From an uncultured virus (IMG/VR IMGVR_UViG_3300037692_000302) (Duplodnaviria; Heunggongvirae; Uroviricota; Caudoviricetes), in IMG/VR virus record IMGVR_UViG_3300037692_000302: a stretch of DNA of 64,000 nt; one strand, given 5' to 3'. The translations under genes were made by a program, and so were the position numbers. Shown in pieces: positions 2,595 through 16,754 of the stretch. Each line of letters starts with the position of its first letter. Position 1 is the stretch's first letter. The notes beneath the pieces are model-generated. The model was not told the DNA's origin and did not search any database. It saw only the letters and a program-made list of their open reading frames with translations.

Positions 2595-2779
2595 CCATCG
2601 AAGGCTGGGACGAAGACGACGACTGCACCGGGGACTGCTGCACCGAACCCGCGCGTCGGCCGCCGGACAGACCGAGGCTGCTCGCCCGCATCCGGGCCGT
2701 ACTGCGCGAGCGGCCGTCGTTCCGTCGTCAGACCCGGCCGCTACCCTCGGCGGCCCGAGGCGTCAACTCACCGCCCTGA
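2591..2779 (+). CDS. hypothetical protein
   Basis: GTGA overlap; ends just before a terminator-like hairpin. Confidence 0.5.
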   Translation: MTIEGWDEDDDCTGDCCTEPARRPPDRPRLLARIRAVLRERPSFRRQTRPLPSAARGVNSPP

Positions 2780-2794
2780 GTGCTCGGACCGTCT

Positions 2795-2821
2795 GAAGCC
2801 CCGACATCCCGTCGGGGCTTC
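2795..2821 (+). terminator. intrinsic terminator-like hairpin
   Basis: GAAGCCCCGAC-ATCCC-GTCGGGGCTTC perfect stem. Confidence 0.7.
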
Positions 2822-3064
2822 GGTCATGTCGCAGGGCGGAAACGCTGAAGGCCGGGCCCGTACGAGGGAGCCACCCTCTAGGCCCGGCCGTGCGAGGTTT
2901 CCCAACCCGTGTCCAGCACGCACAGTCCAGCACGGGCGCGCGGTCTCCGCCAGAAACCCCTACGGGCAGGGGATCCTGCCGTTGTCGGACCTGCGGCGTA
3001 CGATCGTCCCGCGTCCCCGGTTCGTCTGGCTGGCCTCCGGGACGCGCTACTCCGCACAACGCGA

Positions 3065-3093
3065 AGACCCCCGTCATCCATCGACGGGGGTCT
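3065..3093 (-). terminator. intrinsic terminator-like hairpin
   Basis: AGACCCCCGTC...GACGGGGGTCT just after the minus-strand operon. Confidence 0.7.
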
Positions 3094-3109
3094 CGCTGTA
3101 TTCCGGCGA

Positions 3110-3526
3110 CTACGGGCGCCACGCCTCCTGGTAACCGGGCCGGTCCGCGTACGGGAGCGCAAGCATGGGCAGCAGGAAGTCTTGGTACTCCTCGGTCACA
3201 TCGCCGATCAGGTCAGCCTCCTTCGAGGCGGCGCGTAGCTCCTCGTACCGCGCAAGGATCTCCCGTTTCGCGTCGATCTCCCGCAGCACCCGAGCCGGAT
3301 CATGCTCCGCGACGTGCGGGCCCACGCCGTCAGCGTCGGCGTTCTCCGGGGTCACCGCCACGACGCCATCGCCCAGGTAATCCACGACGGTGTACCGCTC
3401 GTAACTCGCCCGGGGTGGGCGGGCGGTCCATACAGCTGACTGGTCGTCCCAGCATGCGGCGTGCGCGATCCGCTCGTCGGTGTTCAGCTGCTCGCCGAGC
3501 CACTGCACCAGATCCACACCGCTCAC
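3110..3526 (-). CDS. DUF6221-family protein
   Basis: HDPARVLREIDAKR...LALPYADRPGYQEAWRP signature. Confidence 0.8.
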   Translation of the reverse strand: MSGVDLVQWLGEQLNTDERIAHAACWDDQSAVWTARPPRASYERYTVVDYLGDGVVAVTPENADADGVGPHVAEHDPARVLREIDAKREILARYEELRAASKEADLIGDVTEEYQDFLLPMLALPYADRPGYQEAWRP

Positions 3527-3885
3527 CGCTCCCACCCCGCTCCCTCGTCGCCGTCCATCCAGACGTAGTACTCGCTGCCCCCACCGCTCGTATGCCGCCC
3601 GTGATAGCCGCGCTCCTGGCAGTACACGCGGTCCGCCATCGGGTCCTCCCGGAACGTCGCCGCACACGGGGCGTCGGCCGGATACTCCTCGGCCTCCTGC
3701 CAGCCCGGCTCCTCGACCGTCCCACTCTGCGTCGGCGGCATGCCCTCGCGGCGCGCGGCCAGGTACGCCTTGAAGTCGTCGATGGCCTGCCGGTCGCCGG
3801 GGGTGAGGCGGACGTTCGGGTTGTTGCCGCAGCGCGGGCCCACCGTCGCCGCCTCGTCTTGCGTCAGATCGTCCACGCCGCTCAC
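3523..3885 (-). CDS. hypothetical protein
   Basis: GTGA overlaps with neighbours. Confidence 0.6.
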   Translation of the reverse strand: MSGVDDLTQDEAATVGPRCGNNPNVRLTPGDRQAIDDFKAYLAARREGMPPTQSGTVEEPGWQEAEEYPADAPCAATFREDPMADRVYCQERGYHGRHTSGGGSEYYVWMDGDEGAGWER

Positions 3886-4148
3886 TCCTCCGCCTCGGCG
3901 GCACGGTGGGCTGCCGTCTTCCAGTCCGGATCATCCCGGGGCGCCTCCATGAGTCCGGCAGCGACAGCCGCACGCACCCACTCCCGCGCCTCCCGGATCA
4001 GCGCCTCCGGGTTGTCCTTGCCGAGCGTCAGCCAATCGGCGCGGGTGCCGCCCGTACGCATCCGCCACGCGGCCTCGGCGAGATGCCGGACACGCGGATC
4101 GGAGGCGTAGTGGACGTTCAGCGCGGGCCTGGCGTCGAGATGTGCCAT
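3882..4148 (-). CDS. hypothetical protein
   Basis: AAGGAGA RBS; coupled to downstream gene. Confidence 0.65.
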   Translation of the reverse strand: MAHLDARPALNVHYASDPRVRHLAEAAWRMRTGGTRADWLTLGKDNPEALIREAREWVRAAVAAGLMEAPRDDPDWKTAAHRAAEAEE

Positions 4149-4213
4149 GCGGGTTCTCCTTCGTTGCGGCGCCCGGCAACGCTACCGAGCGGCAGGGTGG
4201 TGGTCGGCCAGAG

Positions 4214-4768
4214 TCAGTCGCCGCTGCGGGGAGCCCGACGGTTCTCTCGCTTGCGGAAGTAGTCTGCGACCGGGGCCCACGGGAAGAGCCACATGTGCGC
4301 GAGGAAGCGCCACTCGCTACGAGGCACAGGCCACGCCGGGTCCCGCTCGGCCAGCTGCATGACGCGCTGACGACTCATGCGCTCCTCGATCCCCTCCGCG
4401 ACCAAGCGCCGAGCGATCTGGGAGACGTTGAGCCATTCCTCTTCGTGCGCCTCCTCCACCCCGAGGTGCCTGGCTCCGCTCGCCGACACGAGCATGGGGG
4501 AAGCGGTGCGGGAGAGGTTGTGTAGCGGGCCCTCGCCCTCGATGGCCTTGACCTCTGCGTCCGCAGCCTCGGGGCGGCTGTCGAACCACTCAAGGGTGTG
4601 GCGGTCCACCTCGGGCCACCAGGTGAGTGTCTTGTCTCGGGAGTGGTCGCCGAAGCGGGTCTTCGGGTTCTTCGTGATGCCGACGTACAGCAGGCGGTCG
4701 CTGGCGTCGTAGAACCGGTAGAGCACTGTGCGCTGCGCGGTCTGGTCGGTCTCGTTCGGTACAGTCAC
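4214..4768 (-). CDS. GIY-YIG nuclease-family protein with C-terminal HTH-like region
   Basis: LYRFYD..DRLLYVGIT...RF..H..K..WW; AE..AI...P.HN. Confidence 0.8.
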   Translation of the reverse strand: MTVPNETDQTAQRTVLYRFYDASDRLLYVGITKNPKTRFGDHSRDKTLTWWPEVDRHTLEWFDSRPEAADAEVKAIEGEGPLHNLSRTASPMLVSASGARHLGVEEAHEEEWLNVSQIARRLVAEGIEERMSRQRVMQLAERDPAWPVPRSEWRFLAHMWLFPWAPVADYFRKRENRRAPRSGD

Positions 4769-4838
4769 CGAAGCGCCTCTCTCTTGCTTGGGTCGGGTTG
4801 CTCACGGCCGGACGGTCTTACTCACCGTCCGGCCGTTC

Positions 4839-5165
4839 TCATTCCTCGGCGGGCGTACCACGCCCGTCCGTGTTCTCGCCGCGCTTCCGGCGGACGCTGC
4901 CGCTCAGCCCTACGGCGATCGCCTGAGCCCGTTGGGCGCTGACGCCTAGCAGCGCGCCGATCTGCGGCCACGTCTTGCCCTGCGCCCGCAGCGCCTGCAC
5001 GCGCTTCTGCCGAACCTCACGAAGCCACTTCTGGTACTGCGGCCACTCGTCGAGCGTTTCCGCCACGGCCTTGGCGCACTCGACGTCGTCCTCGATGGCC
5101 TCGATGGCTCGGATGGCTTCCACTAGGCGGTTCACCTCCTTGTTCCGTTCGGGCCCATCTGTCAC
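4839..5165 (-). CDS. small HTH DNA-binding protein (probable repressor of the divergent operon)
   Basis: GKTWPQIGALLGVSAQRAQAI helix-turn-helix; AGAGAGGAG RBS. Confidence 0.75.
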   Translation of the reverse strand: MTDGPERNKEVNRLVEAIRAIEAIEDDVECAKAVAETLDEWPQYQKWLREVRQKRVQALRAQGKTWPQIGALLGVSAQRAQAIAVGLSGSVRRKRGENTDGRGTPAEE

Positions 5166-5203
5166 GCCGCGCTCCTCTCTGCGGTGCGACACGCACAGTC
5201 TCT

Positions 5204-5237
5204 CATCCCCGGGGTTGCGAACTCAACCCCGGGGATG
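5204..5237. promoter_or_regulatory. 14-bp perfect inverted repeat, putative operator
   Basis: CATCCCCGGGGTTG-N6-CAACCCCGGGGATG between divergent genes. Confidence 0.65.
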
Positions 5238-5360
5238 CGACAGTGGGTACCGCGAGGCCGCTCCCTCGGTCTTGTGCTCAACAACGAAGGCCCCGGTCGG
5301 AGCTCTCACACTGCCGACCGGGGCCGGACCCACCCACACCGTGACGAGGAGCAGGCCCTG

Positions 5361-5438
5361 ATGGGACACGCTACCGACCAGCCCCCTGAGCAGCACAGCC
5401 CCGCGCCGTGGCCCGGCGACTCGGCGGGTGCCCGATGA
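5361..5438 (+). CDS. 25-aa micro-ORF
   Basis: GAGGAG RBS; ATGA overlap with next ORF. Confidence 0.45.
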   Translation: MGHATDQPPEQHSPAPWPGDSAGAR

Positions 5439-5548
5439 GCGATCACTCCCGCCCCGCCGAGGGCACCCCGCAACCCCTCCCCGCGCCCGCGCCCCGCCCG
5501 CCCGCGCAGGACACCCTCCCGCGACGCACCCCTGGAGGCTCCCTGTGA
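5435..5548 (+). CDS. 37-aa Pro-rich micro-ORF
   Basis: ATGA and GTGA overlaps at its two ends. Confidence 0.5.
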   Translation: MSDHSRPAEGTPQPLPAPAPRPPAQDTLPRRTPGGSL

Positions 5549-5679
5549 GCTACGAAGGCCCCACCTGCACCGGATGCGGCGGCCAAGGCGGCTACCCCGA
5601 AACAACCCCTCTCCCCGACGGCGGCCACAACACCATCTTCCGCACCTGCACCACCTGCGGCGGAAGGGGCACCCAGTGA
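5545..5679 (+). CDS. 44-aa CxxCxGxG zinc-finger micro-protein
   Basis: CTGCGGQG...CTTCGGRG; GGAGG RBS. Confidence 0.65.
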   Translation: MSYEGPTCTGCGGQGGYPETTPLPDGGHNTIFRTCTTCGGRGTQ

Positions 5680-5777
5680 CCTGCTGCGGCCAACCCATGC
5701 AACCCCAAGGCCAGCAACTCGTCTGCGGGAAATGCGGCGCCTGGTACGACCCCGGCACCAGCGGAAGCACCCGATGA
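5676..5777 (+). CDS. 33-aa Zn-ribbon micro-protein
   Basis: CCGQPM...CGKCG; coupled to neighbours. Confidence 0.6.
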   Translation: MTCCGQPMQPQGQQLVCGKCGAWYDPGTSGSTR

Positions 5778-5875
5778 ACCAGTGCGCCCGCTGCGGCGGA
5801 TGGTTCGGCCTCACCTCCTGGATGTGCGACGCCTGCCAACAACTCACCCACCACCTGTACGGAGGCGGCCACTGA
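5774..5875 (+). CDS. 33-aa CxxC..CxxC micro-protein
   Basis: MNQCARCGGWFGLTSWMCDACQQLTHHLYGGGH; ATGA and TGATG overlaps. Confidence 0.6.
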   Translation: MNQCARCGGWFGLTSWMCDACQQLTHHLYGGGH

Positions 5876-6072
5876 TGGCCTGGTTCCGCCGCACCGAGCA
5901 GTCCACCCGCAACTACCCCGCCGCCGGAACCAGCATCACCGGAGACACCGGACGCTTCCGCCGGGCCAAAACCAGCGGAGCCCGACAAGCCGGCGCCGAA
6001 GCCGAAGCCTGGGAACAAGCCGACCGCGCCCGCGACCGACGCGGCACCGGCTGGCGCATCACCCGCTGGTAA
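5875..6072 (+). CDS. hypothetical protein
   Basis: GGAGG RBS; TGATG coupling. Confidence 0.6.
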   Translation: MAWFRRTEQSTRNYPAAGTSITGDTGRFRRAKTSGARQAGAEAEAWEQADRARDRRGTGWRITRW

Positions 6073-6115
6073 CCACCCGACCAATGCAGCCGACCACAAC
6101 CAGAACCGAGGCCCC

Positions 6116-6301
6116 GTGGACAAGAACACCAACATCCAAAACGCCGTCAACGCGGTAGCCGTAGCCACCCAAGCCATCAACGACTACGGCCACAACTCAC
6201 CCCAAGCCCAAGGCGCACTCCAAGCCGCCCACGACACCGTCACCACCGCCCGCAACCACGGCGCCACCGACGACGACATCCGGGCAGCACGCCCCCAGTA
6301 A
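6116..6301 (+). CDS. hypothetical protein
   Basis: GAGG RBS; coding-like codon usage. Confidence 0.55.
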   Translation: MDKNTNIQNAVNAVAVATQAINDYGHNSPQAQGALQAAHDTVTTARNHGATDDDIRAARPQ

Positions 6302-6372
6302 CGCAGCCCCCAAGCCCCCGCCGCCGCGCACATCCCCCAGCGCGGCGGCGGGCCCACACCCCGGAGAACTGC

Positions 6373-6612
6373 ATGCACACCGCCATCGCCACCCTCGCCT
6401 GGATCGCCGGCCTCATCGCCTTCGCCCTCACCGCCGCGCCCGCCATCCGGGCGCGCACCCGCCGCGCCTACAACCAGGCCGCCGACACCCTCGGCCGATA
6501 CACCCGCCTCGCCTGCCCCCACTGCCCGCTGATCTTCCGCTACCGCGGCGTCGGTCCGGCAGAGGACCGCCGGTTCCGCCAGTACATGGACGACCACACC
6601 GCCAGCCACTGA
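6373..6612 (+). CDS. small membrane protein with C2H2-like C-terminus
   Basis: N-terminal TM segment; CPHC...H...H. Confidence 0.65.
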   Translation: MHTAIATLAWIAGLIAFALTAAPAIRARTRRAYNQAADTLGRYTRLACPHCPLIFRYRGVGPAEDRRFRQYMDDHTASH

Positions 6613-6651
6613 CCCGCCCGACCCGACCAGCCGCACCCGGAGGAGCAGCAC

Positions 6652-7731
6652 GTGAAGACCCTGACCTGGGGACAGAAGACCGTTCTCGCCCTGGCCACCC
6701 TCCCCATGATCGGTGCGGGTGGACTCGGCGCATGGGGCACCTACGCCAACATCACCAGCGTCTTCCACCGCTCCGCCACCGCCCTCGGAGTCGTCGCTGC
6801 CGGCGAAGGCGCCACCCTCGTCCTCGCCCTCGTCCTCGTCGGCCTGACCATGCTCGGCCAGCCGTCACCCCTCGCCGTCCGCGCCGGCCTATGGATGCTG
6901 CCCGCAGCGGCCTCCGTCGTCGGCGTCCTCGTCGCGCCCGGGGTGAAGGACGCGGTCGTGTTCGCGATCACCCCCATGGCCATGACCGTGTCCGCCGAAG
7001 GCCTCGGCCTCCTCGCGCGCCGGATCGTCGTACACACCACGGGCGTCGACGTCGAGGCGCAGCGCCGAAACGCGGCCACCCTGCGACGGATCGCTTACCA
7101 CCGGGCGCGGGCCGAACGGCACCCGGACAAGAAGGTGCGCAAGGCGTCGGCTCTCAAGGCGTGGAAGCTCATGAGCCACGTCGGCGCCGGCGATGCGGCT
7201 CTCGGCTCAGGGCTCGTCGGCGTACAGCGGGAACGGATCACCGAGGGCGCAGACGCGGCTCTCGTCGACATGCTCACCGGCCGTCCGGCTCTGCCTGAGC
7301 TGCCCCCGGCTCAGCCCGACGTGAGCCCTGAGCCCGAGCCGGTTGAGCCTGAGCCGGTCGACTACGAGACGACGGTCAACACCGCGCTTCCCGTCATCGG
7401 CAGCGAGCCGCGCCCCATGTTCGCTGACCCCGCGCAACTCCGCATGCAGCTCCCTGACCAGGCAGTCTCACGTGAGCCCGTCTTGAGCCCGGCTGAGCCG
7501 ATGACCGTGAGCCGCGCTGAGCCGAGCCCTGAGCCCGCCCGTGAGCCCGACGAGCCGGAGGCCGACGAGATCGAGCAACAGATCTCCCAACTCGCCTCCC
7601 GGCTCAGGGGCGGCGAACGGCTCACCAAGACCACCGCGGCTCAGCTTCTCGGCGTGAGCCAAGCCACCGCCGGCCGACGGCTCAAGGAAGCCAAGGGCCG
7701 CATCGGAGACGGAACGGGGCAGTACCTGTGA
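6652..7731 (+). CDS. multi-TM membrane protein with Pro/Glu linker and C-terminal HTH (SpdB/DUF2637-like)
   Basis: About four N-terminal TM segments; LTKTTAAQLLGVSQATAGRRL HTH; architecture resembles Streptomyces plasmid spread proteins. Confidence 0.7.
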   Translation: MKTLTWGQKTVLALATLPMIGAGGLGAWGTYANITSVFHRSATALGVVAAGEGATLVLALVLVGLTMLGQPSPLAVRAGLWMLPAAASVVGVLVAPGVKDAVVFAITPMAMTVSAEGLGLLARRIVVHTTGVDVEAQRRNAATLRRIAYHRARAERHPDKKVRKASALKAWKLMSHVGAGDAALGSGLVGVQRERITEGADAALVDMLTGRPALPELPPAQPDVSPEPEPVEPEPVDYETTVNTALPVIGSEPRPMFADPAQLRMQLPDQAVSREPVLSPAEPMTVSRAEPSPEPAREPDEPEADEIEQQISQLASRLRGGERLTKTTAAQLLGVSQATAGRRLKEAKGRIGDGTGQYL

Positions 7732-7734
7732 GCC
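7172..7734. repeat. cluster of 20 TGAGCC/GGCTCA hexamers
   Basis: Counted by eye; both orientations and several codon phases. Confidence 0.8.
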
Positions 7735-7898
7735 TCTTCGCCGCCGCCTGCCCGATAGCCGCGCTCCTCGCCGCAGTCGGCCTCCACCACTACGCACCCC
7801 GCCGCGCCCCGTTGCTGTACCTCGGGCCGGCCGCCTGCACCACCGCCCTCATCGCCATCGCAGCCGCCTACGTCGCGGCCCTCTGGAGCCACACGTGA
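7728..7898 (+). CDS. small two-TM membrane protein
   Basis: Hydrophobic; GTGA overlaps at both ends. Confidence 0.6.
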   Translation: MSLFAAACPIAALLAAVGLHHYAPRRAPLLYLGPAACTTALIAIAAAYVAALWSHT

Positions 7899-8392
7899 AC
7901 ACCTACAGCGTCGTCTCGCTCGGCGCCGTCGTCGTCGGCCTGTCCATCACTGCCTGGTACGTCACGACCTGGTGGGTCGGCAGCAAGAAGCACAGCGCGA
8001 AGGAGCTGCTTCCGTTCATCGCGTTCTCCCTGTACGGGATGCTCCTGATCCTGACTGCTGGGGGCATTCTCGGCGGCCTCGCCGGATGGGCCCTGTGGGG
8101 ATCGTCGCAGGTCGGAGACGCAGCGCTCCGGTACGGGGTGGGTGCGGGAACGCCGGACGTCACCCGGCATTCGAGCCTGGTTCTGACCGACGGGGGAGCA
8201 GCCACAGTGATCGTGATGACGGTGGTCCTGTGCGCCGTCTGGTACAAGCGGCGGCGCCTGCACGTCGAGTACGCGCTCGGTGTCGTCAACGGGATCACCC
8301 TCGGTCTCGCGTCGGGTGTCGCCGGGGTCGCAGCCACAGTGCTCGGGCCCGTGGTGAACACGGGCGGCGACTGGATTGTGGGGCTGATGTGA
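7895..8392 (+). CDS. multi-TM membrane protein
   Basis: About four hydrophobic segments; coupled. Confidence 0.75.
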   Translation: MNTYSVVSLGAVVVGLSITAWYVTTWWVGSKKHSAKELLPFIAFSLYGMLLILTAGGILGGLAGWALWGSSQVGDAALRYGVGAGTPDVTRHSSLVLTDGGAATVIVMTVVLCAVWYKRRRLHVEYALGVVNGITLGLASGVAGVAATVLGPVVNTGGDWIVGLM

Positions 8393-9144
8393 GGGCGCTC
8401 CGCCGCTTCTTGCGGCTCGTCAGTCGGGGGATCGCGGCCCAGCGCAAGAACTGGTCCAAGTGGGTCCTGTGCGGACGATTCGTGCCCGCCGTACGGCGCC
8501 TGGCCGGAACGGGCATCGGCCTGTGGTTCCTGGGCTCGCTGGTGATGAACGCGCCGGGCATGATGTGGCCGGCCGTCGGTCTCTGGCTCGCCGCGGCGTG
8601 GCGGGCCGGCCGGAACATCGAGGAGGAGACGCGCAACGAGGAGCGGTTCGTGCAGTGGCTGCGCGACGTGATCGGCGACCGCAACGGCGTGCTGCTGTCC
8701 GAGCTGCTCGCGGCCTGGCACGAGGCGGGCGTGAATCTCGACTGGGAGGTGGCTCAGGTCCGGTCGATCTGCGAGCGGCTGGCCATCCCGGTGCGGGACA
8801 AGCTGAAGGTCGGCGGGGTGGTGTCGGTCGGTGTGCACGTGGATGACTTCACGCGTGTGTGGGATGTGGAGGTGACACCCCCTCCCCCGGCCCAGGAGGC
8901 CGCCCCTTCTGAGGCGGTGACCAGCGATAACTACTTGTCAACCGTGGAGGCCACGCCGATCGCGGTCGGGGCCGCGTGGTCACTACACGCGTCCCGCAAA
9001 CCGGCCCCCGAGGGAGCCGACGCGGATGCCGAAGAGGCCGAGCGGCTGCGCATCCAGGCCGTGATGAACCGGGTCGATGAGCTCAAAGAGGCGGCCTTCG
9101 AGGACCACCTCACGGACGCCCTCGGCATCCTCCACACCGACTGA
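8389..9144 (+). CDS. membrane-anchored hypothetical protein
   Basis: Two TM segments then a soluble domain; GTGA overlap. Confidence 0.7.
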   Translation: MRALRRFLRLVSRGIAAQRKNWSKWVLCGRFVPAVRRLAGTGIGLWFLGSLVMNAPGMMWPAVGLWLAAAWRAGRNIEEETRNEERFVQWLRDVIGDRNGVLLSELLAAWHEAGVNLDWEVAQVRSICERLAIPVRDKLKVGGVVSVGVHVDDFTRVWDVEVTPPPPAQEAAPSEAVTSDNYLSTVEATPIAVGAAWSLHASRKPAPEGADADAEEAERLRIQAVMNRVDELKEAAFEDHLTDALGILHTD

Positions 9145-9208
9145 ACGAACGCGCCCGGCCCCGCTCGCGGACTCCCGCGGCGGGGCCTTCGTGCGTCACC
9201 ATGGGCCC

Positions 9209-9391
9209 ATGCCTGCCGCGCTGAAGTTCACCGGGGAAGAGAAAGACCTGACGCTCGATGAGCTGACCGCGTTCGTCGAGGCAGCCAGGAAGGCCGGCGT
9301 CCCCGGCGCCAACCCGGTCCGTGCCGAGCTGTCGACGTCCGGGAAGATCAAAGAGGTTGAGATCGCGCTCACCGAGGACGACGACCGGTAG
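9209..9391 (+). CDS. small hypothetical protein (probably leaderless)
   Basis: CACCAT -10-like hexamer 6 nt upstream of ATG. Confidence 0.6.
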   Translation: MPAALKFTGEEKDLTLDELTAFVEAARKAGVPGANPVRAELSTSGKIKEVEIALTEDDDR

Positions 9392-9493
9392 CGCCTGTCA
9401 CACTGGGTCTCGCGCCGGGTAACTCCCGGCCCCCTGACGGCCCCGCCCCGCACCCCCCAGCGGAGCGGGGTCGGCCCGCATCCGGAGGACCCC

Positions 9494-9634
9494 GTGAATC
9501 CCAGCGCCCTGCGTCAGCCGGTCCGGCCGCCCGCCAGGTCTACCCCGCTCGGCCAGACTGATCCGCGCACCCTCGACCGCCTCCCGGGTGCGGCACCCCG
9601 GACGAGGAAGGCGACGTTCAACTCGGCGGTGTAG
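9494..9634 (+). CDS. FxSxx-COOH-type RiPP precursor-like peptide, 46 aa, orphan
   Basis: GGAGG RBS then GTG; MNPSALRQPVRPPARSTPLGQTDPRTLDRLPGAAPRTRKATFNSAV*; C-terminal F-N-S-A-V-stop. Confidence 0.75.
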   Translation: MNPSALRQPVRPPARSTPLGQTDPRTLDRLPGAAPRTRKATFNSAV

Positions 9635-9692
9635 CCGCCTGCTGTCGGTTCCGGCCGCTACGATCCGGCGCACCAACGTCCTTGGGGGGACC

Positions 9693-10028
9693 ATGCGCCG
9701 TACCGCCGTTCTGCTCGCCTGCCTGCTGCCGCTGACTGCCTGCTCGGCCGGTTCCGATCCGGCCCCGGCGGTGACGGTCACCGCGACGAAGTCCCCGTCT
9801 CTGTCGGCCGCCGACGCGCGGGCCGCCTGCGTGGACGCGTGGCTGGCGGTATTGGAAAACACGCCGGACGATGCGCCAGATGTGGCGGACAAGCCTGCCG
9901 TATGTGAGGGGCAGGCGGGGCAGGCGACGATGTATGCGGAGGCGTTGCAGACGCGGAACCAGGCGAACCGGGATGAGCTGGATGCATGCCTGGAGGATCC
10001 GGAGTGCACGGGTTGGCCAGTGCCGTAG
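9693..10028 (+). CDS. lipoprotein
   Basis: Signal peptide with lipobox LTAC; GGGGGA RBS. Confidence 0.8.
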   Translation: MRRTAVLLACLLPLTACSAGSDPAPAVTVTATKSPSLSAADARAACVDAWLAVLENTPDDAPDVADKPAVCEGQAGQATMYAEALQTRNQANRDELDACLEDPECTGWPVP

Positions 10029-10040
10029 GGCGTACGCGAG

Positions 10041-10072
10041 AGGCCCCGTCCGGGATGGTCCGGGCGGGGCCT
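10041..10072. terminator. bidirectional terminator-like hairpin
   Basis: AGGCCCCGTCCGG...CCGGGCGGGGCCT between convergent genes. Confidence 0.65.
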
Positions 10073-10087
10073 TCGTCGTGCGGTGGG

Positions 10088-10384
10088 CTACTCGCCCGGA
10101 TGTGCGGGGCCCAAGCCGGTCGGCGCCTTCAACGGCCACGTGCCGCCCTGCGCCTCGACCTTGCCGCGCACGGAAGCGAAGACGTCGTCCAGCGACAGCC
10201 GCTCGCCCGTGTCGAGAGTGCCGCGCTCAACACCGAGGGCGTCCTCGATCTGGTCTCGGTAGTAGTACCAGGCGACTTCCCTGCCGCCGCCCTCGTCGGT
10301 CTCCTGCTGGGTGCGGTCCATGTCCTGGAGCAGTTCGACGAGGCGGCCGATCTGCTGGTCTGGGGTGGGTTCCGTCCCGCTCAT
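10088..10384 (-). CDS. hypothetical protein
   Basis: Last gene of a coupled minus-strand operon. Confidence 0.6.
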   Translation of the reverse strand: MSGTEPTPDQQIGRLVELLQDMDRTQQETDEGGGREVAWYYYRDQIEDALGVERGTLDTGERLSLDDVFASVRGKVEAQGGTWPLKAPTGLGPAHPGE

Positions 10385-10818
10385 GTGGTGGGTCCTCCGA
10401 CGATCGTCTCGACGAGAACCTTCTGCACCTGGTCCGACCAGCGCTCCACCTCGACGCCGTCATCGCAGCGCACAAGCCCAACCCTGAACGGGCTGTCCAC
10501 ATCATCAGAGAGACGGCGACTGTCCACCAACTGCACAACGCAGTCGAAGCCTTCCCCGTGCAGCCACGCTCGGACCGTGTCGCCGCGCTTGATGGGTGTC
10601 CCGCGATAGTCGAACGCGATCACGTGCCCGTTGCCGGCGTAGGCGTCGGCCAACGCTTCACGGCGGGCAGTCGTCTCGGTTTTAGCAAGTACGCGGTCGC
10701 GCATCAAAGCGAAGTACGTCCATGCGGCCAGTTGGTATGCCTCCTCGGTGGGGAAGTCGCTCCGCTTTGGGCATTCGCGCATGCTTGAGAGTTCGTCGAC
10801 CGTGTAGACGTCGTTCAC
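10381..10818 (-). CDS. hypothetical protein
   Basis: GAGGAG RBS; GTGA overlap. Confidence 0.6.
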   Translation of the reverse strand: MNDVYTVDELSSMRECPKRSDFPTEEAYQLAAWTYFALMRDRVLAKTETTARREALADAYAGNGHVIAFDYRGTPIKRGDTVRAWLHGEGFDCVVQLVDSRRLSDDVDSPFRVGLVRCDDGVEVERWSDQVQKVLVETIVGGPTT

Positions 10819-11135
10819 GTGGTCGGCTCCTCGCCACGCGCGCTCGCGTCCAGTCGTGCCCGATGCTTGCGCACACCGTCCTCGTCGTACGGCGCATCCA
10901 CCCAGATCTCTGCATGGATCCGCTGGTACACGCCATCCTCGACCAGCTGGATGTCCAGCTCGGTCCACGGGGTAGGCCCGACGAGCGGGGTGATCGCCTT
11001 GATGCGCTCCTCGAACCAGTCACAGTGCATCGACCACTGGCCGTTGATGGCGGCGCGGCGTGCGGTCTGGAGGTCGGTCCAGAGGCAGGCGAGTTCGTTA
11101 CGCAGGGCGCTGCGCAGGGTCTCGATGTCGCTCAT
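10815..11135 (-). CDS. hypothetical protein
   Basis: AAGGAGA RBS; ATGA overlap. Confidence 0.6.
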   Translation of the reverse strand: MSDIETLRSALRNELACLWTDLQTARRAAINGQWSMHCDWFEERIKAITPLVGPTPWTELDIQLVEDGVYQRIHAEIWVDAPYDEDGVRKHRARLDASARGEEPTT

Positions 11136-11380
11136 CCGCTCGTCTCCTTGCTGGCGGCCGGAAGCACCGGCCACGTGATCTCCACGCCGTCGTCGCCGTA
11201 ATAGAACCTGCGCGGACCCGCCCACCCCGCCGCGAAGTCGTTGGTGATCCTCTTCACTGCCGCCTCGATCATCGACCTGACGAGGTCGGCGCCCACCTCC
11301 GGGGCGTGCCATTGTGCGACGTCGGCGACCTCAACCGTCACGGTGATCTGCACGCGGCCTGGCTTCGGGTTGGGACTCAC
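11132..11380 (-). CDS. hypothetical protein
   Basis: Coupled ORF with RBS. Confidence 0.55.
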   Translation of the reverse strand: MSPNPKPGRVQITVTVEVADVAQWHAPEVGADLVRSMIEAAVKRITNDFAAGWAGPRRFYYGDDGVEITWPVLPAASKETSG

Positions 11381-11601
11381 GGGGTCGGCTCCTCGCTGCT
11401 CACCGGGTGCTCGCTGATCTGCTCGGCTGCGCGCCTCAACTCCGCGTTGTTCCGGTCGAACACCTCATCCATCTTGCGTTGCGTCCAGCCCAGCGCCTCG
11501 GCAGGGGTTGGCCCACTCCAGTCGGCGAGGAGCAGCAGGCGTTCCATGGCTTTCCCGGAGAGGGGCCGCGGCTCGGGCTCGGGGGTGGCGTTGTCGCTCA
11601 T
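11377..11601 (-). CDS. hypothetical protein
   Basis: Coupled ORF with GAGGAG RBS. Confidence 0.55.
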   Translation of the reverse strand: MSDNATPEPEPRPLSGKAMERLLLLADWSGPTPAEALGWTQRKMDEVFDRNNAELRRAAEQISEHPVSSEEPTP

Positions 11602-12107
11602 GCGTTGTTCTCCTCGCTGTCGGCCGGGCGCTCCGGGCGCTCCGGGAGTGCGTTGCGTAGTTGCTCGATCAGCATGCGCGTCACGTGCCCACGCCGAGCC
11701 TGATCGGCACGCGACCTTGGCGCCGAGCCCATCCTCGCCTCACGCTCCTCGGTGAGGCTACGACCCCACAGACGACGCGCCATCGAGTCGACATGGCCCG
11801 GCGAGCAGCCCAGCCGCCGTGCCGCCTTCGCTGCCGCTTCGCACGGCCCATTCGCCGCCGGGGAGGGATTCGGTAGGCCATCGACGAGATGCGCCAGCGT
11901 GATGCCGAAGATCTGAGCCGCGACCGTCAACGCGTAGGCGCTGACCCCGTGCTTCCCCTGCTCGATCTGGCCGACGGTGGTCCGGTGCCAAGGGAGTCCC
12001 AGCGCTTTTGCCTGCTGGGCGATGCCTTCCCTGGTTTGGCCACTCTGCTCTCTGGCTTGAGCCAGGCGTTCGCCGAGTGCGGCGTCGAACTCCCGTTGCG
12101 CCGTCAC
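11598..12107 (-). CDS. XRE-family HTH transcriptional regulator
   Basis: LGERLAQAREQSGQTREGIA...WHRTTVGQIEQG. Confidence 0.8.
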   Translation of the reverse strand: MTAQREFDAALGERLAQAREQSGQTREGIAQQAKALGLPWHRTTVGQIEQGKHGVSAYALTVAAQIFGITLAHLVDGLPNPSPAANGPCEAAAKAARRLGCSPGHVDSMARRLWGRSLTEEREARMGSAPRSRADQARRGHVTRMLIEQLRNALPERPERPADSEENNA

Positions 12108-12895
12108 GCGCCTTCCTCCTCGCCGACCGTCGGGCGCTCCCCGTACACCTCGTCGTGCTTCAACAGCTCCATGTCCAGGGCGGTGTGCATAACCGCGAAG
12201 CCCTTGGACCCGTCGGCCGCCGCCTCCTCGACCTGGTCCAGCTTCTTCAACTGCATCTCGCTGGCCAAGGACCGGGCGCGCGCGGCGAAGGTTGCCGCTT
12301 CCTCGTCGGTCACCGGGCGGCCGGTGGCATTGGTCACCGGCGGCTCGTCCAGCTCCGGAATCTTGAAGCCCTTCTGGTGCCCCAAGTCCACGATCAGATA
12401 GTCCAGGTCGGGCCCTTGCAGGTGCGGGTACTCCTGCCGGATTCCCTCGACCCACTCGGGTGATGTGGTCTCGGCCTTGTCGACCAGCCACGTGATGCGG
12501 TCGAGCGGGAGCGCCAAGACCTTCCAGGAGATGGACGGCACAGGCTTCCGCAGGGTCTCGGTGACCTGCTGGCGGGGCGTGGCGGCGGCGGGGCTCGGCT
12601 CCTTCGACTTGGTTGTGGCTTCGAGTGAGGCGGCGGCCAGGAGGCGTGCGCGCGCCGTCTCGGTCCGCGCCTTGTAGGACGGATCGGCATGGATGTCGTT
12701 GTCACGGGCGAGCTTGCGGACGTATGCGGCAGTCCACTCGGCGCGGCGGGCGATGTCGGTTGGGGCCGCGTCTGGCTGCCGAAGTGCTTCGAGGACGAGT
12801 TCGGTGAGTCCTTGGCGGGACTGCTTGGCCTTGGCCTCGTCGCGTTTGTATCGGGCTGCGGCGGCGGCGATGGGGTCGGGGTCGTCGGTGGTCAT
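12104..12895 (-). CDS. N-terminal HTH DNA-binding protein
   Basis: PTDIARRAEWTAAYVRKLAR HTH; divergent from the 13035 operon. Confidence 0.7.
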   Translation of the reverse strand: MTTDDPDPIAAAAARYKRDEAKAKQSRQGLTELVLEALRQPDAAPTDIARRAEWTAAYVRKLARDNDIHADPSYKARTETARARLLAAASLEATTKSKEPSPAAATPRQQVTETLRKPVPSISWKVLALPLDRITWLVDKAETTSPEWVEGIRQEYPHLQGPDLDYLIVDLGHQKGFKIPELDEPPVTNATGRPVTDEEAATFAARARSLASEMQLKKLDQVEEAAADGSKGFAVMHTALDMELLKHDEVYGERPTVGEEEGA

Positions 12896-12905
12896 GGGTT
12901 CAGGG

Positions 12906-13016
12906 TAGCGCTGCGTGGGTCCGCTGAAAAGAAGCGCACGGAAAGAGCGCAATGCTATTGCGCTCAACCCTAGCGCTCCCTATGCTGATGCCAGACAGCG
13001 CAACGAAGTAGCGCTG
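12906..13016. promoter_or_regulatory. divergent promoter region with repeated AGCGC(T/A) sites
   Basis: Palindrome GAGCGCAAT-GCT-ATTGCGCTC and three TAGCGCT copies. Confidence 0.6.
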
Positions 13017-13034
13017 AACGTCGAGGGGGACCCG

Positions 13035-13376
13035 ATGAACGCACGCACCCGCACCGCCCGCCGCATCCTCGCCCAGCGCACCCGCACCAACCGCGCCGCC
13101 GCGAAGATCCGCCGCACCGGACACGGCACCCTCGCCACCCACTGCATCGCCGCCGGACTCGGCATCCGAGAGGCGCGCACCGTCGCCGGGTCCCTCCGCA
13201 AGAACGCCGCCAAGGCCGACGTCACCGGACAGGCCGGGACCAGCTACGCCAAGAACATCAAGTCCCATGCCTGCACCCGCTACACCCCGGCCGAGGTCGC
13301 CCGCATCGCGGTCATCTACCGCCCCCGCAAGGCCGCCTACAAGGTTGCCGCTGCCAAGCTCGCCCTCGCCGCCTGA
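13035..13376 (+). CDS. basic hypothetical protein
   Basis: GAGGGGG RBS; Arg/Lys/Ala-rich. Confidence 0.7.
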   Translation: MNARTRTARRILAQRTRTNRAAAKIRRTGHGTLATHCIAAGLGIREARTVAGSLRKNAAKADVTGQAGTSYAKNIKSHACTRYTPAEVARIAVIYRPRKAAYKVAAAKLALAA

Positions 13377-13389
13377 AGAGAGAGAAGAG

Positions 13390-13902
13390 TTGAAGTCGTT
13401 GAGCAAGCGTCGCTGGCCTTCGGTCCGAGAGAGATTGCTGAGTCGCGTAGTGATCGACGCGAACGAATGCTGGATCTACACCGGAACGATCACGGATCAG
13501 GGGTACGGACAGATCGGCGTAGAGGGAAGGGTTCGGCAGGCTTACAAAGTTGCCTACGAACTGTTCATCGGAGAAGTGCCGCCCGGGCTGGAACTCGACC
13601 ACCTCTGCCACACGCGCGATCTGGCGTGCATCAGCAATACCGAATGCCGACACCGGCGTTGCGTGAATCCGTGGCACCTCGAACCGGTGACGCCGGAAGA
13701 GAACACGCGACGATCGAACAACCCCAGCGCAATCAACGGCCGCAAGACTCACTGCATCCACGGCCACGAGTTCACGTCGGCGAACACCTACGTCAAGCCG
13801 AACGGTCATCGGCAGTGTCGCCAGTGCGGCCGTGAAACGTCGGCTCGCTACTTCGCCACCAAGGGGCGAGCGAGGGACCGCCGCCGCCGCCGATCCGACT
13901 GA
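13390..13902 (+). CDS. HNH endonuclease
   Basis: CWIYTG..YG...LDHLC..CVNPWHLEPVT..EN; KTHCIHGH; start approximate. Confidence 0.85.
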   Translation: MKSLSKRRWPSVRERLLSRVVIDANECWIYTGTITDQGYGQIGVEGRVRQAYKVAYELFIGEVPPGLELDHLCHTRDLACISNTECRHRRCVNPWHLEPVTPEENTRRSNNPSAINGRKTHCIHGHEFTSANTYVKPNGHRQCRQCGRETSARYFATKGRARDRRRRRSD

Positions 13903-13981
13903 TGCCTTGACCTCGCCGCCTGAGACCAACTCCACGACGCAGCAGACGAACCAGACCCGCAGCCCGGCCCCGGAGGCCGCC

Positions 13982-14167
13982 ATGCAGATCGGCCCGCGCA
14001 CCGTCATCTTCCACTCGCCCGACTCACACACCCTGTGGGACCGCCACATCGACGGCACCACCTACCGCTTCATGGTCGTCCACGACAGCAAAGGGCAGCT
14101 CCAAGCGGCAGCCTGGCGGGTCGATCGGCGGAACTCGCTGACCGTGGCCCACCAGTGGCGTCACTGA
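13982..14167 (+). CDS. hypothetical protein
   Basis: GGAGG RBS. Confidence 0.55.
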   Translation: MQIGPRTVIFHSPDSHTLWDRHIDGTTYRFMVVHDSKGQLQAAAWRVDRRNSLTVAHQWRH

Positions 14168-14229
14168 CCTCCCCACCACCGCCCGCGTCCAACTCCTCGC
14201 CGACGCGCTCGCCGTTTAAGGAACCCGCC

Positions 14230-14958
14230 ATGCGCACCCATGCCACAGCACAACTCATCGGCGACCGCAGTCACCAATGCGATGCCACCGCGACCGCCGC
14301 CGGCCCCAACGGCACCCGCGCCCACGTCCTCCTCGACGGCATCGGCAGCTCCGACGAGACCCGCGACTGGACCCGTACCGCGGCCCGAAAGCTGGCCCGC
14401 TCCGCCGCCTACCACGCCGACGCGGAAACCGGCCTGCGCACCCAGTACGAGAAGTACGCCGCCGACCCCGACCGGCAAGGCCCCTGGGGCTTCGGACCGA
14501 ATGCCTGCGCGATCGTCGCCGTCACCACCCCACGCTGGCTCACCATCGCCTGGTGCGGCGACACCCGCGCCTACCTGATGGTCCGCGGTACAGTCCTGCG
14601 GCTCACCGCCGATCACAACCTGCGGCGCGTCTATCCGCCGGACGACGTCTACCCGACCGGCGGGAGCCGCAACACGGTGACCAGCTGCCTCGGCTCTCCG
14701 CACACCGACGACGAGGTGAAAGCCGAGTACGGGCACCCCGCGATCGAAGCGGTCACCCGCCCCGCCGAGGACTGCCGACTGTTGCTCGCCTCTGACGGCG
14801 CGTACGAGCCGTTGGAGGACTCGCTGCGCAACCTCGCCGACTACCTCACCGGCGCGCCCGGCTATGCGGCCCGTGACTTCGTCACCGCCGCCGTCGAGCA
14901 CGCCACCCTGCACGCCGACAACGCCACCGTCCTCATCGCAGACCTTGCCGCCCGCTGA
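14230..14958 (+). CDS. PP2C/PPM-family protein phosphatase-like protein
   Basis: RSHQCD, LLDGIG, AWCGDTRAY, LTADH, LLLASDG, DNATV motifs. Confidence 0.8.
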   Translation: MRTHATAQLIGDRSHQCDATATAAGPNGTRAHVLLDGIGSSDETRDWTRTAARKLARSAAYHADAETGLRTQYEKYAADPDRQGPWGFGPNACAIVAVTTPRWLTIAWCGDTRAYLMVRGTVLRLTADHNLRRVYPPDDVYPTGGSRNTVTSCLGSPHTDDEVKAEYGHPAIEAVTRPAEDCRLLLASDGAYEPLEDSLRNLADYLTGAPGYAARDFVTAAVEHATLHADNATVLIADLAAR

Positions 14959-14969
14959 AGGAGACCCCC

Positions 14970-15236
14970 ATGGACAAGCTCAACCCCGACGCCCTCGCCG
15001 AGTGGGGCGAAGAGGAAAGCGCACCCGATGAGGACGTACGGCCCGGCGTGCAGCGCGACGTCACCGCCCAGATGATCGCGGACTACGTCACCGACGAGGG
15101 CGACCTGCCCCGCGAGTCCGCCGAACCCTTCGGCCAGTACCTGCACCAGGCGTGGAACGACTACGTGGAGAGCGAGACGCTCACGCAACGGGACCTGATC
15201 GCCGGGGCCCTCGCGTTCTGGCGCGGCACCGCCTGA
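14970..15236 (+). CDS. acidic hypothetical protein
   Basis: AAGGAGA RBS. Confidence 0.7.
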   Translation: MDKLNPDALAEWGEEESAPDEDVRPGVQRDVTAQMIADYVTDEGDLPRESAEPFGQYLHQAWNDYVESETLTQRDLIAGALAFWRGTA

Positions 15237-15282
15237 ACCGCAGTCACCCGCCCCGCCGTCACCTTCACCCAAGGAGCACCCC

Positions 15283-15753
15283 ATGGACTTCCGCCAGGCC
15301 TTCAACATCGTCACCGCCGAACTCACCCCGCAGCCCTGGGACTACACCATGGCTTCCGGCACCCGTCTCCGCGTCATCCCCGCCGGCCTGCACGCAGACA
15401 AGGGCGACGCCGAGGTACTCATCCGCATCACCCGCCCCGACGCCACCGGCCTCTACGACTACGGAGTCACCGGACCCGACAGCCGCGGCGTCGCCGAAGT
15501 CGGCGTACCCACCGCCGTCCTGCCCGGCCTGATCCAGGCGCTCACCGATCAGGAAACCTGGGAGGACAACACTCTGATCGCCGGTGCTCTCTTCGTGCGC
15601 CCGGACGTCTCCGGTGTGGCCGTGACCGTGACCGAGATTCACTCCGCGGACCGGCAGGAGAAGGCGTTCGCCAGTCTGCCGGAGGCGCAGCGTCTGCCGC
15701 TCGCGTCCGCACTCCGCCGCGCCCTCGACGTGGCGCGCGGGTGGGAGCAGTAG
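15283..15753 (+). CDS. hypothetical protein
   Basis: AAGGAG RBS. Confidence 0.7.
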   Translation: MDFRQAFNIVTAELTPQPWDYTMASGTRLRVIPAGLHADKGDAEVLIRITRPDATGLYDYGVTGPDSRGVAEVGVPTAVLPGLIQALTDQETWEDNTLIAGALFVRPDVSGVAVTVTEIHSADRQEKAFASLPEAQRLPLASALRRALDVARGWEQ

Positions 15754-15842
15754 CCGCCCCGGGCGCCGTCGAACGACGGCGCCACCGCCTGACTGGCCGA
15801 CACGGCAGACTGAGCCACGCCGCCGCCGCAAGGAGAACCCGC

Positions 15843-16754
15843 ATGGGACGCGAGATCCGCCGAGTGCCAGCCGACTTCGACTGGCCCCTCAGCAAGGTCT
15901 GGGAAGGCTTCCTCAGCCCCGACAAGTTCGACGAAACCCCCTGCCCCGACTGCAAGAACGGCTACTCGGCGCAGGCACAGAACCTGTACGACCTCTGGTA
16001 CGGCTACCTGCCCTTCGATCCGGCCAGCACCGGATCGACGCCGTGGCGCCACGACAGCCCGGCCGTCCGGGCGTTCGCCGAGCGCAACATCGCCAACGCG
16101 CCCGACTACTACGGCACCGGCGAGAACGCCACCGTCCGCGAGGGACAGCGGCTCGCGAACCTGTGGAACGGCATGTGGTCCCACCACCTCACCCAAGACG
16201 ACGTCGACGCGCTCGTCGCCGCCGGCCGCCTCCGCAACTTCACCCACACCTGGACCCGCGAGACTCGCTGGCAGAAGATCGAACCGCCCGTAGTGCCGAC
16301 TGCCGCACAGGTCAACGAGTGGTCGCCGAGCGACCTTGGCCACGACGCGATCAACGCGGGCGTCGTCATCCGCGCCCGCTGCGAACGTGAAGGCATCGAC
16401 GACACCTGCCCGACCTGCAAGGGCCACGGCTCGATCGAGAAGTACGAGGGCCAGCGCGCCGAGGCCGAAGCGTGGGAGCCGACCGACCCGCCGCAGGGCG
16501 ACGGCTGGCAGCTGTGGGAGACCGTATCCGAGGGCTCCCCGATCAGCCCCGTGTTTGCTGCCCCCGAAGAGCTGGCTCACTGGATGGCCTCCCCGGCCTA
16601 CACGTGGGGGGCGGTCAAGTCGGATGCCGATCGGCCGACCTACGAATCAGCCCTTCGCTTCGTCGGGGAAGGCTGGGCACCCTCGTTCGTCTTCAGCCCG
16701 CAGACCGGTGTCGTGTCCGGTGTTGAGTGGGTCGGCACCCAAGACGACGCCTGA
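15843..16754 (+). CDS. phage hypothetical protein with a split CxxC zinc motif
   Basis: MGREIRRVP..FDWP; CPDC/CPTCKGHG; GWQLWETVSEGSPISPVF. Confidence 0.8.
   Translation: MGREIRRVPADFDWPLSKVWEGFLSPDKFDETPCPDCKNGYSAQAQNLYDLWYGYLPFDPASTGSTPWRHDSPAVRAFAERNIANAPDYYGTGENATVREGQRLANLWNGMWSHHLTQDDVDALVAAGRLRNFTHTWTRETRWQKIEPPVVPTAAQVNEWSPSDLGHDAINAGVVIRARCEREGIDDTCPTCKGHGSIEKYEGQRAEAEAWEPTDPPQGDGWQLWETVSEGSPISPVFAAPEELAHWMASPAYTWGAVKSDADRPTYESALRFVGEGWAPSFVFSPQTGVVSGVEWVGTQDDA

Follow-up and report, generated by a model that had tools for sequence, protein, structure and literature searches.

A phage-borne peptide family whose C-terminal hexapeptide resembles that of one FxsA subtype

Main

A 46-codon open reading frame (ORF) at 9494..9634 on the + strand of a 64,000-nucleotide stretch of DNA from an uncultured virus of the Caudoviricetes (IMG/VR record IMGVR_UViG_3300037692_000302; the whole stretch is called the window here) is, we are confident, a real gene of a new, unannotated small family. 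The window encodes a temperate, Streptomyces-type phage, and the ORF list, the sequence and a family alignment together define the product as a basic, disordered peptide, MNPSALRQPVRPPARSTPLGQTDPRTLDRLPGAAPRTRKATFNSAV, which ends in the hexapeptide TFNSAV. Judged from sequence profiles, the match of this full hexapeptide to the tail of one subtype of FxsA, the precursor peptide of bacterial Fxs systems, is beyond chance. The gene is an orphan, carried alone in a cassette that is present in some related phages and absent from others. The tail match suggests a phage decoy without proving one, and we tentatively prefer to see the peptide as an orphan mimic of the FxsA core, borne by the phage and engaging the Fxs machinery of the host.

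The accessible part of PMC7159879 describes Fxs as a peptide-processing system in which a small, fast-diverging precursor and a radical SAM/SPASM enzyme are linked to TIR and AP-ATPase/TPR genes; variability is high in the precursor as a whole and lower in its C-terminal peptide, and the processed peptide is predicted to be a toxin or a signal. FxsAB is functionally uncharacterised according to the accessible part of a 2026 preprint (10.64898/2026.10.19.760177), where an antiviral molecule or a diffusible alarm is proposed. A Phe-Ser crosslink made by FxsB is consistent with two lines of information: NCBIfam names FxsB 'cyclophane-forming' (and its HExxH partner a peptide beta-hydroxylase), and triceptides are defined by an aromatic-to-C-beta link on aromatic-X-X motifs, as far as the accessible part of PMC11499958 goes. 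A literature search that covered papers without their supplements found none showing the FxsB reaction or a phage-borne FxSxx peptide.

The gene belongs to a small family with an invariant tail

A sequence-only reading of the window had described an ORF running from GTG at 9494 to TAG at 9632-9634, its translation and a GGAGG ribosome-binding site, and the sequence bears this out exactly. The Shine-Dalgarno motif lies at 9484..9488 (+), 5 nucleotides (nt) before the start codon, and is also kept in a second copy of the gene in the related lineage L044; in the window a full GGAGG precedes 15 of the 98 genes called by a codon model, as against 5 of 225 spurious ORFs. The ORF shares the frame of the 60-residue gene upstream of it, and this frame is open from the TAG at 9389-9391 through 9634.

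Searching 1.84 billion representative proteins with phmmer returned four at E ≤ 0.001. Three of them align with the candidate to the C-terminus, namely P0001 (43 residues, E = 7.2e-8), P0003 (44 residues, E = 1.5e-5) and P0004 (40 residues, E = 4.6e-5); the match to the fourth, the 321-residue repeat protein P0002, was judged to be composition noise and was not taken into the family. A profile search added P0005, so that with the candidate and the L044 copy the family has six members, those other than the candidate lying on metagenome contigs of 1.8-9.4 kb. All six are 40-46 residues long with a net charge of +4 to +6 (+6 for the candidate) and have no hydrophobic segment. Their N-termini are variable and rich in proline and arginine, the middle conserves LG.T.PR.LDR[LI]P, and TFNSAV, the FxsA-type core encoded at 9614..9631 (+) in the window, is invariant in all six. 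Both the ORF and its C-terminus are thus kept among relatives, a check that the sequence-only reading had proposed.

Start, stop and frame are preserved across the family, and every indel is in-frame. Pairwise scores reach 39-48 bits, compared with at most 12 bits for full shuffles and at most 19 bits for shuffles that keep the tail, and for no member did any of 300 shuffles reach the real score. Between the candidate and the L044 copy there is no indel over 141 nt; the ~110 nt upstream hold three. AlphaFold2 models the candidate as mostly coil, with a predicted local distance difference test (pLDDT) of 66 and a predicted template modelling score of 0.17.

There were no matches to the family in NCBIfam (E ≤ 10), PHROGs (E ≤ 0.01) or PADLOC (E ≤ 1), and none to the candidate in Pfam. 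A search of 401 genus-level and 401 class-level genomes, whose positive control, a shortened viral copy, scored 59 bits, turned up no member. Sequenced phages gave neither a DNA match nor a tblastn match to the candidate, a word-based protein search with the single peptide gave no match at near or longer lengths, and the 80-residue frame had no match in the genome collection. Viral contigs matched neither the family pattern nor the 5' end of the ORF as an exact pattern, and a protein-language atlas returned no usable match. A provisional leaning towards a chance ORF, or towards a gene with no link to FxsA, which had rested on an FxsA profile of one subtype, ambiguous codon statistics and two sequences, was overturned by the phmmer family and by the second FxsA subtype described below.

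Another phage lineage, with a GC content of 0.64, holds a possible relative. At L063 4001-4177 (-), identical in L058, L064 and L066, lies a plausible 57-residue ORF that ends in ..KLTPLGAINTREAALRSGWVAEAAAQRRGGTTTFNSAV, a few genes from a 503-residue ORF resembling a large terminase by eye. It has LTPLG and a TTFNSAV tail in common with the family; beyond the tail, for which the pattern had selected it, its similarity to the family falls short of significance, since 54 of 500 shuffles do equally well. The other matches of the tail-pattern scan are due to chance, being AT-rich or reading through TGG.

The tail resembles that of one FxsA subtype

A bare FxSxx-stop ending is worthless as evidence. 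It stands before 1 of the 1869 stop codons in the six frames of the window, where 2.3 are expected from composition, and at least one occurs in 96 of 100 simulated windows. What exceeds chance is the ORF as a conserved gene and the match of the full hexapeptide to one FxsA subtype. The curated FxSxx-COOH model, TIGR04268 (cut-off 28 bits), detects FxsA above this value in 30 of the 81 genomes sampled from the genus, and these sequences fall into dissimilar types. Our initial profile, built on the best 12 loci, represents a single subtype (subtype 1, the commoner one), with the leader PDLxxLDLxxLRxxxHPVL, the tail ...EMLWGFNNAF and a net charge of -2 to -8. Among 24 tails recovered with it, 2 end exactly in FxSxx and 9 in FxNxx, none with FNS, and 8 of 20 additional FxsA loci gave no match to it.

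The profile of the phage family, run over 92 sources (406 kb), scored 14.7 bits to a frame in L077, a genuine locus that the subtype-1 profile had missed. This frame represents a second subtype of Streptomyces FxsA (subtype 2, ...RVPLAQIDVRSTDTARKLARVLPAAAGRTLRASTFNSAL), seen in six loci (L077, L079, L081, L083, L086 and L090) and in at least 6 of the same 81 genomes, with the invariant tail [TI]FNS[AS]L. L077 and L081 score 44.6 and 40 bits with TIGR04268. Annotation of these two of the six loci (as L092 and L093) found both complete, with, in this order, FxsA, FxsBH (588 and 594 bits), a TIR-like FxsC and an AAA plus FxSxx_TPR protein. FxsBH is a radical SAM/SPASM maturase of the cyclophane type.

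The phage hexapeptide is identical to the subtype-2 tail at five of six positions, with V for L at the end. Alignment of the two profiles with hhalign gives a probability of 71% (E = 3.7e-5) with 68% identity over 22 columns, pairing RTLDR-LPGAAPRT-RKATFNSAV in the phage family with RKLARVLPAAAGRTLRASTFNSAL in subtype 2, and a joint alignment of 12 sequences has the invariant columns P12, R29, R36, F42, N43 and S44. In local mode the phage family and subtype 2 score 25.7, and subtypes 1 and 2 score 18.4 against each other (E = 0.0015); so low a score between genuine subtypes agrees with the precursor variability described in the accessible part of PMC7159879. The likeness is also specific. Under the subtype-2 profile the last 20 residues of the candidate rank first of 634 window ORF tails at 12.9 bits, the next reaching 5.4 and the rest averaging -0.4 (standard deviation 1.4), and of 6125 frame tails from all the non-fxs DNA examined, none comes close except family copies and the L063-type ORF. 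The candidate tail is only sixth when ranked by the subtype-1 profile.

A resemblance noted by eye, TPLGQTDPR to VPLAQIDVR, proved not significant across the family and was dropped. A predicted complex between the peptide family and a Streptomyces FxsB, taken from a subtype-1 locus and not from the host, scored 0.02 against a mark of 0.32, which speaks neither for binding nor against it.

The genomes with TFNSAL-type FxsA, G010, G057, G061, G066 and G067 (loci L077, L081, L083, L086, L090 and others), each have a second FxsA match elsewhere, of another type where these matches were examined. The TFNSAL type goes with a fused FxsBH, the EMLWGF type with a separate FxsB plus an HExxH hydroxylase.

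The gene sits alone in a present-or-absent cassette

The sequence-only reading had held that the phage carries the peptide by itself, and our searches agree. No radical SAM, HExxH, TIR or TPR family was found among the 98 called genes of the window at E ≤ 1e-4, the threshold used for all family matches to this gene set. The closest of the related records examined, G001, has no match to FxsB (TIGR04269), and no fxsB is visible in the 2.4-kb flanks of the gene in L044, which hold other genes.

To locate related lineages, we anchored on the invariant segment that precedes the downstream gene. The window and L044, which is the lineage of the shortened viral contig L012/L014, have ~150 extra bases between the second of two hairpins and a promoter-like segment. 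To place the bounds of the insert, we scanned for the deletion that best restores the alignment to each lineage without it: 9484-9632 against G001, 9488-9639 against L016, 9477-9630 against L046 and 9484-9634 against L047, the last being a single best solution. Because these bounds coincide with the Shine-Dalgarno motif and the stop codon, the lineage-specific cassette (9484..9634, ~150 base pairs, an indel found by the deletion scan and assigned to neither strand) consists, within a few bases, of Shine-Dalgarno, ORF and stop. It is absent from seven other lineages that have the promoter segment (G001/L013, L016, L038, L039, L045, L046 and L047) and from three or more additional junction variants, which showed up as the loose ends of contigs aligned to the region; no variants occur inside the ORF among those aligned contigs. 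The accessory location that had been claimed for the gene accordingly takes the form of a present-or-absent cassette, missing from most related phages. The window has no second copy of the insert, and no part of the G001 record has any. An origin in a host gene was considered and rejected, the matches in 82 of 401 genomes being short, gapped, GC-rich pieces inside unrelated genes.

The surroundings of the insert have a fixed order in relatives: the stop of a variable gene, the box CTGYCACACTGG, hairpin 1, hairpin 2, a spacer of ~20-25 nt, a promoter-like segment with GCTACGATCC, a G-run ribosome-binding site and the ATG of an exported protein. In the window the upstream gene, of 60 residues, lies at 9209..9391 (+); it is the last of a + strand operon, has a summed codon-model score of 31.8 and matches weakly to PHROG 9864, a family of unknown function (E = 2.2e-5). 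The conserved box, CTGTCACACTGG at 9395..9406 (+), opens the shared intergenic cassette and follows unrelated upstream genes in L016, L044, L046, L047 and G001/L013. It contains the CACACT at 9399-9404 that the sequence-only reading had taken for a -10-like promoter box. The hexamer is indeed there, within the 12-mer CTGYCACACTGG; it is not an ORF-specific promoter, because the 12-mer is kept in related phages without the ORF, its count is at chance level (one occurrence in the window, 1.02 expected) and no sigma-70-type promoter is predicted. The box may be a recombination boundary or a regulatory site. Simple scans near the ORF called neither a sigma-70-type promoter nor a terminator, hairpin 2 included, and Rfam over 8800-10300 gave no relevant match.

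Hairpin 1 (9414..9430, +), with the 6-base-pair stem GCCGGG/CCCGGC, has a folding energy of -12.7 kcal/mol, matched by 3 of 200 shuffles, and is kept in L016, L044, L046 and L047. Hairpin 2 (9438..9473, +) is GC-rich and terminator-like without a U-tract; at -28.5 kcal/mol it is more stable than all 200 shuffles, and a counterpart of different sequence stands in the same place in G001, L016, L046 and L047. The hairpin-rich leader described earlier is thus real as far as these two hairpins go, but the entire 312-nt intergenic stretch folds no better than shuffles (z = 0.21).

Downstream of the ORF, 9641..9692 (+) holds a promoter-like segment and the 5' untranslated region (UTR) of the next gene, with GCTACGATCC at 9657-9666 and a G-run ribosome-binding site at 9684-9690. 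It is 96% identical to G001, and exact 21-25-mers of it recur in 3 viral, 1 genome and 9 relevant metagenome loci. We infer a promoter role for this segment, which the promoter scan did not predict; CACACTGG and GCTACGATCC were also tried as recurring motifs of the window and set aside, their counts not exceeding chance. A hairpin at 9666..9700 (+; -18.0 kcal/mol, 13 of 200 shuffles as stable) covers the ribosome-binding site and AUG of the downstream gene, and a comparable fold with differing pairing partners is predicted in 11 of 11 lineages, with or without the insert. By this modelling, the hairpin over the start of the exported-protein gene may serve translational control.

That gene (9693..10028, +), the last + strand gene before convergent genes, encodes a 111-residue lipoprotein with a signal peptide and an LTAC match to what we take to be the lipobox pattern; it has relatives at 40-46% identity in 3 viral contigs and weak matches to lipoprotein families. 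A near-identical promoter-like segment, 5' UTR and start (..AACGTCCTTGGGGGGACCATGCG.., window 9641-9700) precedes very different small exported proteins in L013-L016, L038, L039 and L041-L047. These proteins are lipoproteins or are N-terminally anchored, 97-190 residues long, with 12 distinct sequences besides that of the window, and from the sequences the segment has the look of a common expression cassette in which diverse exported 'moron' genes replace one another. On the other side of the cassette, the gene just upstream in L044 (1506-2039, -) appears GIY-YIG-like by eye (..VYALIDP..IRYIGKT..) and has no PHROG match; the upstream gene of L047 has the same C-terminal end.

The phage and its related records

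The window has a G+C content of 68.8%, and its genes include those for a large terminase, a portal, an integrase, three WhiB proteins, an amidase and a Tad2-like domain. The Tad2-like candidate of the sequence-only reading was confirmed as a Thoeris anti-defence 2 match (PF11195, E = 1.8e-25) at 46888-47157, directly before the amidase gene. G001 spans 70.9 kb and is rated only 79% complete; it is ~99% identical to window 18971-64000 and mosaic with respect to 3700-17650, the region of the ORF. The window is circularly permuted relative to G001, with 17652 onward corresponding to G001 from base 1 and 322-14404 to G001 58596-70945, so the ends of G001 are probably assembly ends and not genome ends. 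Public runs containing the stretch are labelled as sediment metagenomes, and no RNA run is listed among them.

Upstream of the terminase, sugar-nucleotide and glycan genes stand in a row at 18090-22655, among them those for a nucleotidyl transferase, an NAD-dependent epimerase/dehydratase, two family-2 glycosyltransferases, a TOD1/MUCI70-like protein and a methyltransferase. The same phage also has a PP2C-like phosphatase domain, along with three genes of the WhiB family (14230-14958; 49937-50350; 62591-63873).

Alternative explanations

Several results weigh against a link to Fxs. The candidate was selected for its FxSxx ending, itself expected ~2.3 times per window, and genomic context was seen for the candidate and L044 only among the six members. 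TIGR04268, the profile check that the sequence-only reading had called for, gives no match at E ≤ 10 for any of the six, and no significant similarity extends beyond the last six residues; a six-frame search with this model of viral record G783, which holds a copy, yielded no candidate. On the subtype-1 profile the candidate scores 1.7 bits, compared with 63-93 for members, and 62 of 200 tail-kept shuffles score as high. When the six tail columns are removed, the hhalign score against subtype 2 is 10.0 (E = 0.11), a value reached by 45 of 300 column-shuffled nulls, and the N-terminal halves of phage and subtype-2 peptides compare at an average z of 0.25, p ≤ 0.05 being reached by 3 of 36 pairs. 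Tail-kept shuffles reached the real score in 1, 10, 18, 35 and 36 of 300 cases for FxsA peptides on the phage profile, and in 11, 11, 15, 29, 83 and 87 of 300 for phage peptides on the subtype-2 profile. The similarity without the tail not being significant and the shuffle tests being mixed, with no more than a weak trend, the Fxs link depends mainly on six residues, and by the curated test and by leader similarity the phage family, as its sequences stand, is not a member of FxsA. The likeness to FxSxx-COOH precursors that had been claimed therefore holds for the tail, which agrees with a genuine subtype at five of six residues, and fails for the leader and for TIGR04268.

These same results are what one would expect if the product were a small phage accessory protein unrelated to Fxs, its hexapeptide a short linear motif docking some other host or phage protein and its likeness to FxsA coincidental. 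In its favour, the members form a real family whose conservation peaks in the tail, and the mostly coil structure (pLDDT 66) and the choice of the candidate for its ending sit easily with this explanation. What makes it doubtful, though a serious contender, is that once FxSxx is given, matching T, N, A and an aliphatic end as well is improbable, as the gap between 12.9 bits and the next 5.4 among 634 tails illustrates; the host clade is moreover one where Fxs loci are common, and the libraries NCBIfam, PHROGs and PADLOC, with 0 matches, point to no other target. The opposite possibility, a genuine new FxsA subtype with a maturase of its own, whose fxsB would lie outside the window or beside the metagenomic members, gains from the limits of the records, since the window is 64 kb, the related 70.9-kb record is only 79% complete and the neighbourhoods of P0001 and P0003-P0005 were not seen; genuine subtypes, too, have little in common with one another apart from the tail (hhalign 18.4). 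We think it quite improbable, given a window of 98 genes with no radical SAM or HExxH, a G001 record with no FxsB match, other genes in the L044 flanks and a cassette that is a bare ribosome-binding site plus ORF.

Position raises the question of a cis-acting leader peptide, an upstream ORF that tunes the exported-protein gene by translation or stalling. The two are on the same strand, the ORF stop lies 58 nt before the next AUG, and the ribosome-binding site and AUG downstream are inside a hairpin. The conserved part of the peptide, its C-terminal ~28 residues, is about as long as a ribosomal exit tunnel; in L044 the ORF is joined to the same 5' UTR, followed by a different downstream gene. 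But the same hairpin and UTR occur in lineages without the ORF, the long-range pairing of the window between the 3' end of the ORF and the downstream gene cannot form in L044, and a conserved promoter-like segment separates the two genes, all of which leaves the leader peptide a slim prospect. As for a non-gene, an ORF open by chance in a spacer of very GC-rich, non-coding DNA, the codon-level data lean its way and count against the gene: the GC content by codon position is 0.68/0.66/0.85, with a high second position, the peptide is rich in proline and arginine, and the codon score of -0.015 bits per codon, against +0.41 for real genes, is ambiguous and falls in the spurious range (mean -0.48 for 63 spurious ORFs, 22% of which score as high). 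The 13 substitutions against L044 in 141 nt split 4/3/6 over the codon positions (P = 0.24) and change 5 codons synonymously and 7 non-synonymously, the antisense frame is open too in both the window and L044, and the 401 genus-level and 401 class-level genomes hold no copy. Six collinear members with conserved start, stop and motifs, in-frame indels and a similarity that 0 of 300 shuffles reach, together with a kept Shine-Dalgarno motif and an indel that spans from that motif to the stop, nevertheless make a non-gene highly improbable.

Proposed role in infection

The sequence-only reading as a whole is partly supported, and the function it proposed, a decoy or a borrowed maturase, would be among the actions open to the FxsA-core mimic that we tentatively prefer. 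On that reading, the peptide would present, in an infected cell, an FxsA-type core with a free C-terminus to the Fxs machinery of the host. There it might decoy FxsBH by competition, serve that enzyme as a hijacked substrate or antagonise the TPR protein, each of which would blunt or subvert the Fxs-linked TIR response. The peptide would be an optional item carried alone, between a terminator-like hairpin and the promoter of the exported-protein gene, and we infer any interaction with Fxs proteins, the way the effect would go and expression by read-through from the upstream operon.

The presumed host clade fits the mimic reading, FxsA being above the TIGR04268 cut-off in 30 of 81 genomes of the genus. 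Further context comes from the Tad2-like domain in the same phage and from the literature, Fxs being treated as immune-linked in the accessible parts of PMC7159879 and the 2026 preprint. One proxy host, G002, has a related prophage cassette without the insert and has neither FxsA nor FxsB; this single case is compatible with the mimic idea.

A more specific form of the idea, which we consider unlikely, is that host FxsBH matures the phage peptide to a cyclophane and that the product antagonises the Fxs TPR/TIR module or gives it a false signal. If true, this would be the first phage-encoded mimic of a bacterial immune or alarm peptide of the type of a peptide that is made on the ribosome and then modified post-translationally, and direct evidence of Fxs as an anti-phage system. 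A core look-alike carried alone in an optional cassette would, if that much is true, be the first phage-side hint that Fxs matters during infection. This matters because FxsAB with its TIR, ParA and TPR partners is functionally uncharacterised in the accessible literature, which guesses that in multicellular actinomycetes the system releases a toxin, an alarm peptide or an antiviral molecule, and a 46-residue peptide with an invariant six-residue tail is a small, concrete reagent for testing Fxs. If instead the tail match is coincidental, the family is an ordinary new one of small phage proteins with a conserved C-terminal motif.

Comparison with known systems

FxsA subtype 2 is the closest parallel. 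Its tail and the phage hexapeptide are the same at five of six positions, end exactly at the C-terminus and are invariant within each group; both peptides are basic (+7 for L077, +4 to +6 in the phage family), the spacing R..LP....R....TFNSA[VL] is roughly collinear, and the two share a presumed host clade. Unlike subtype 2, the phage peptide has no invariant RVPL..I leader block and no TIGR04268 score (against 40-45 bits), is shorter (40-46 residues, against open frames of 59-85 codons), and is phage-borne with no adjoining maturase, TIR or TPR gene. Like subtype 1 it is small and has an aromatic-x-[SN] triad close to the C-terminus, but there is no similarity (1.7 bits) and the charge is opposite, -2 to -8 against +6 in the phage. 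Precursors of triceptides, on which radical SAM enzymes of the XyeB and YhhB type form three-residue cyclophanes, offer a looser likeness, F-N-S fitting the aromatic-X-X motif given in the accessible part of PMC11499958. The phage peptide differs from them in having no co-encoded maturase and a single motif at the extreme C-terminus.

Two phage systems also invite comparison. In arbitrium, AimP and other RRNPP-type pro-peptides are ~43 residues long, occur in temperate phage and have their functional part in the C-terminal six residues; the phage peptide is of similar size, lies in a temperate phage and has six conserved C-terminal residues. It departs from AimP in that the family has no hydrophobic signal sequence (maximum Kyte-Doolittle ≤0.57, compared with 2.45 for the neighbouring lipoprotein), the window holds no TPR receptor gene, and the hexapeptide stays the same across divergent members instead of diversifying. 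Tad2 blunts TIR-based immunity. The phage peptide has no folded sponge domain and no Pfam match, and would act by peptide mimicry and not by nucleotide-signal capture; like Tad2, it may be a small accessory product aimed at a TIR-linked host system.

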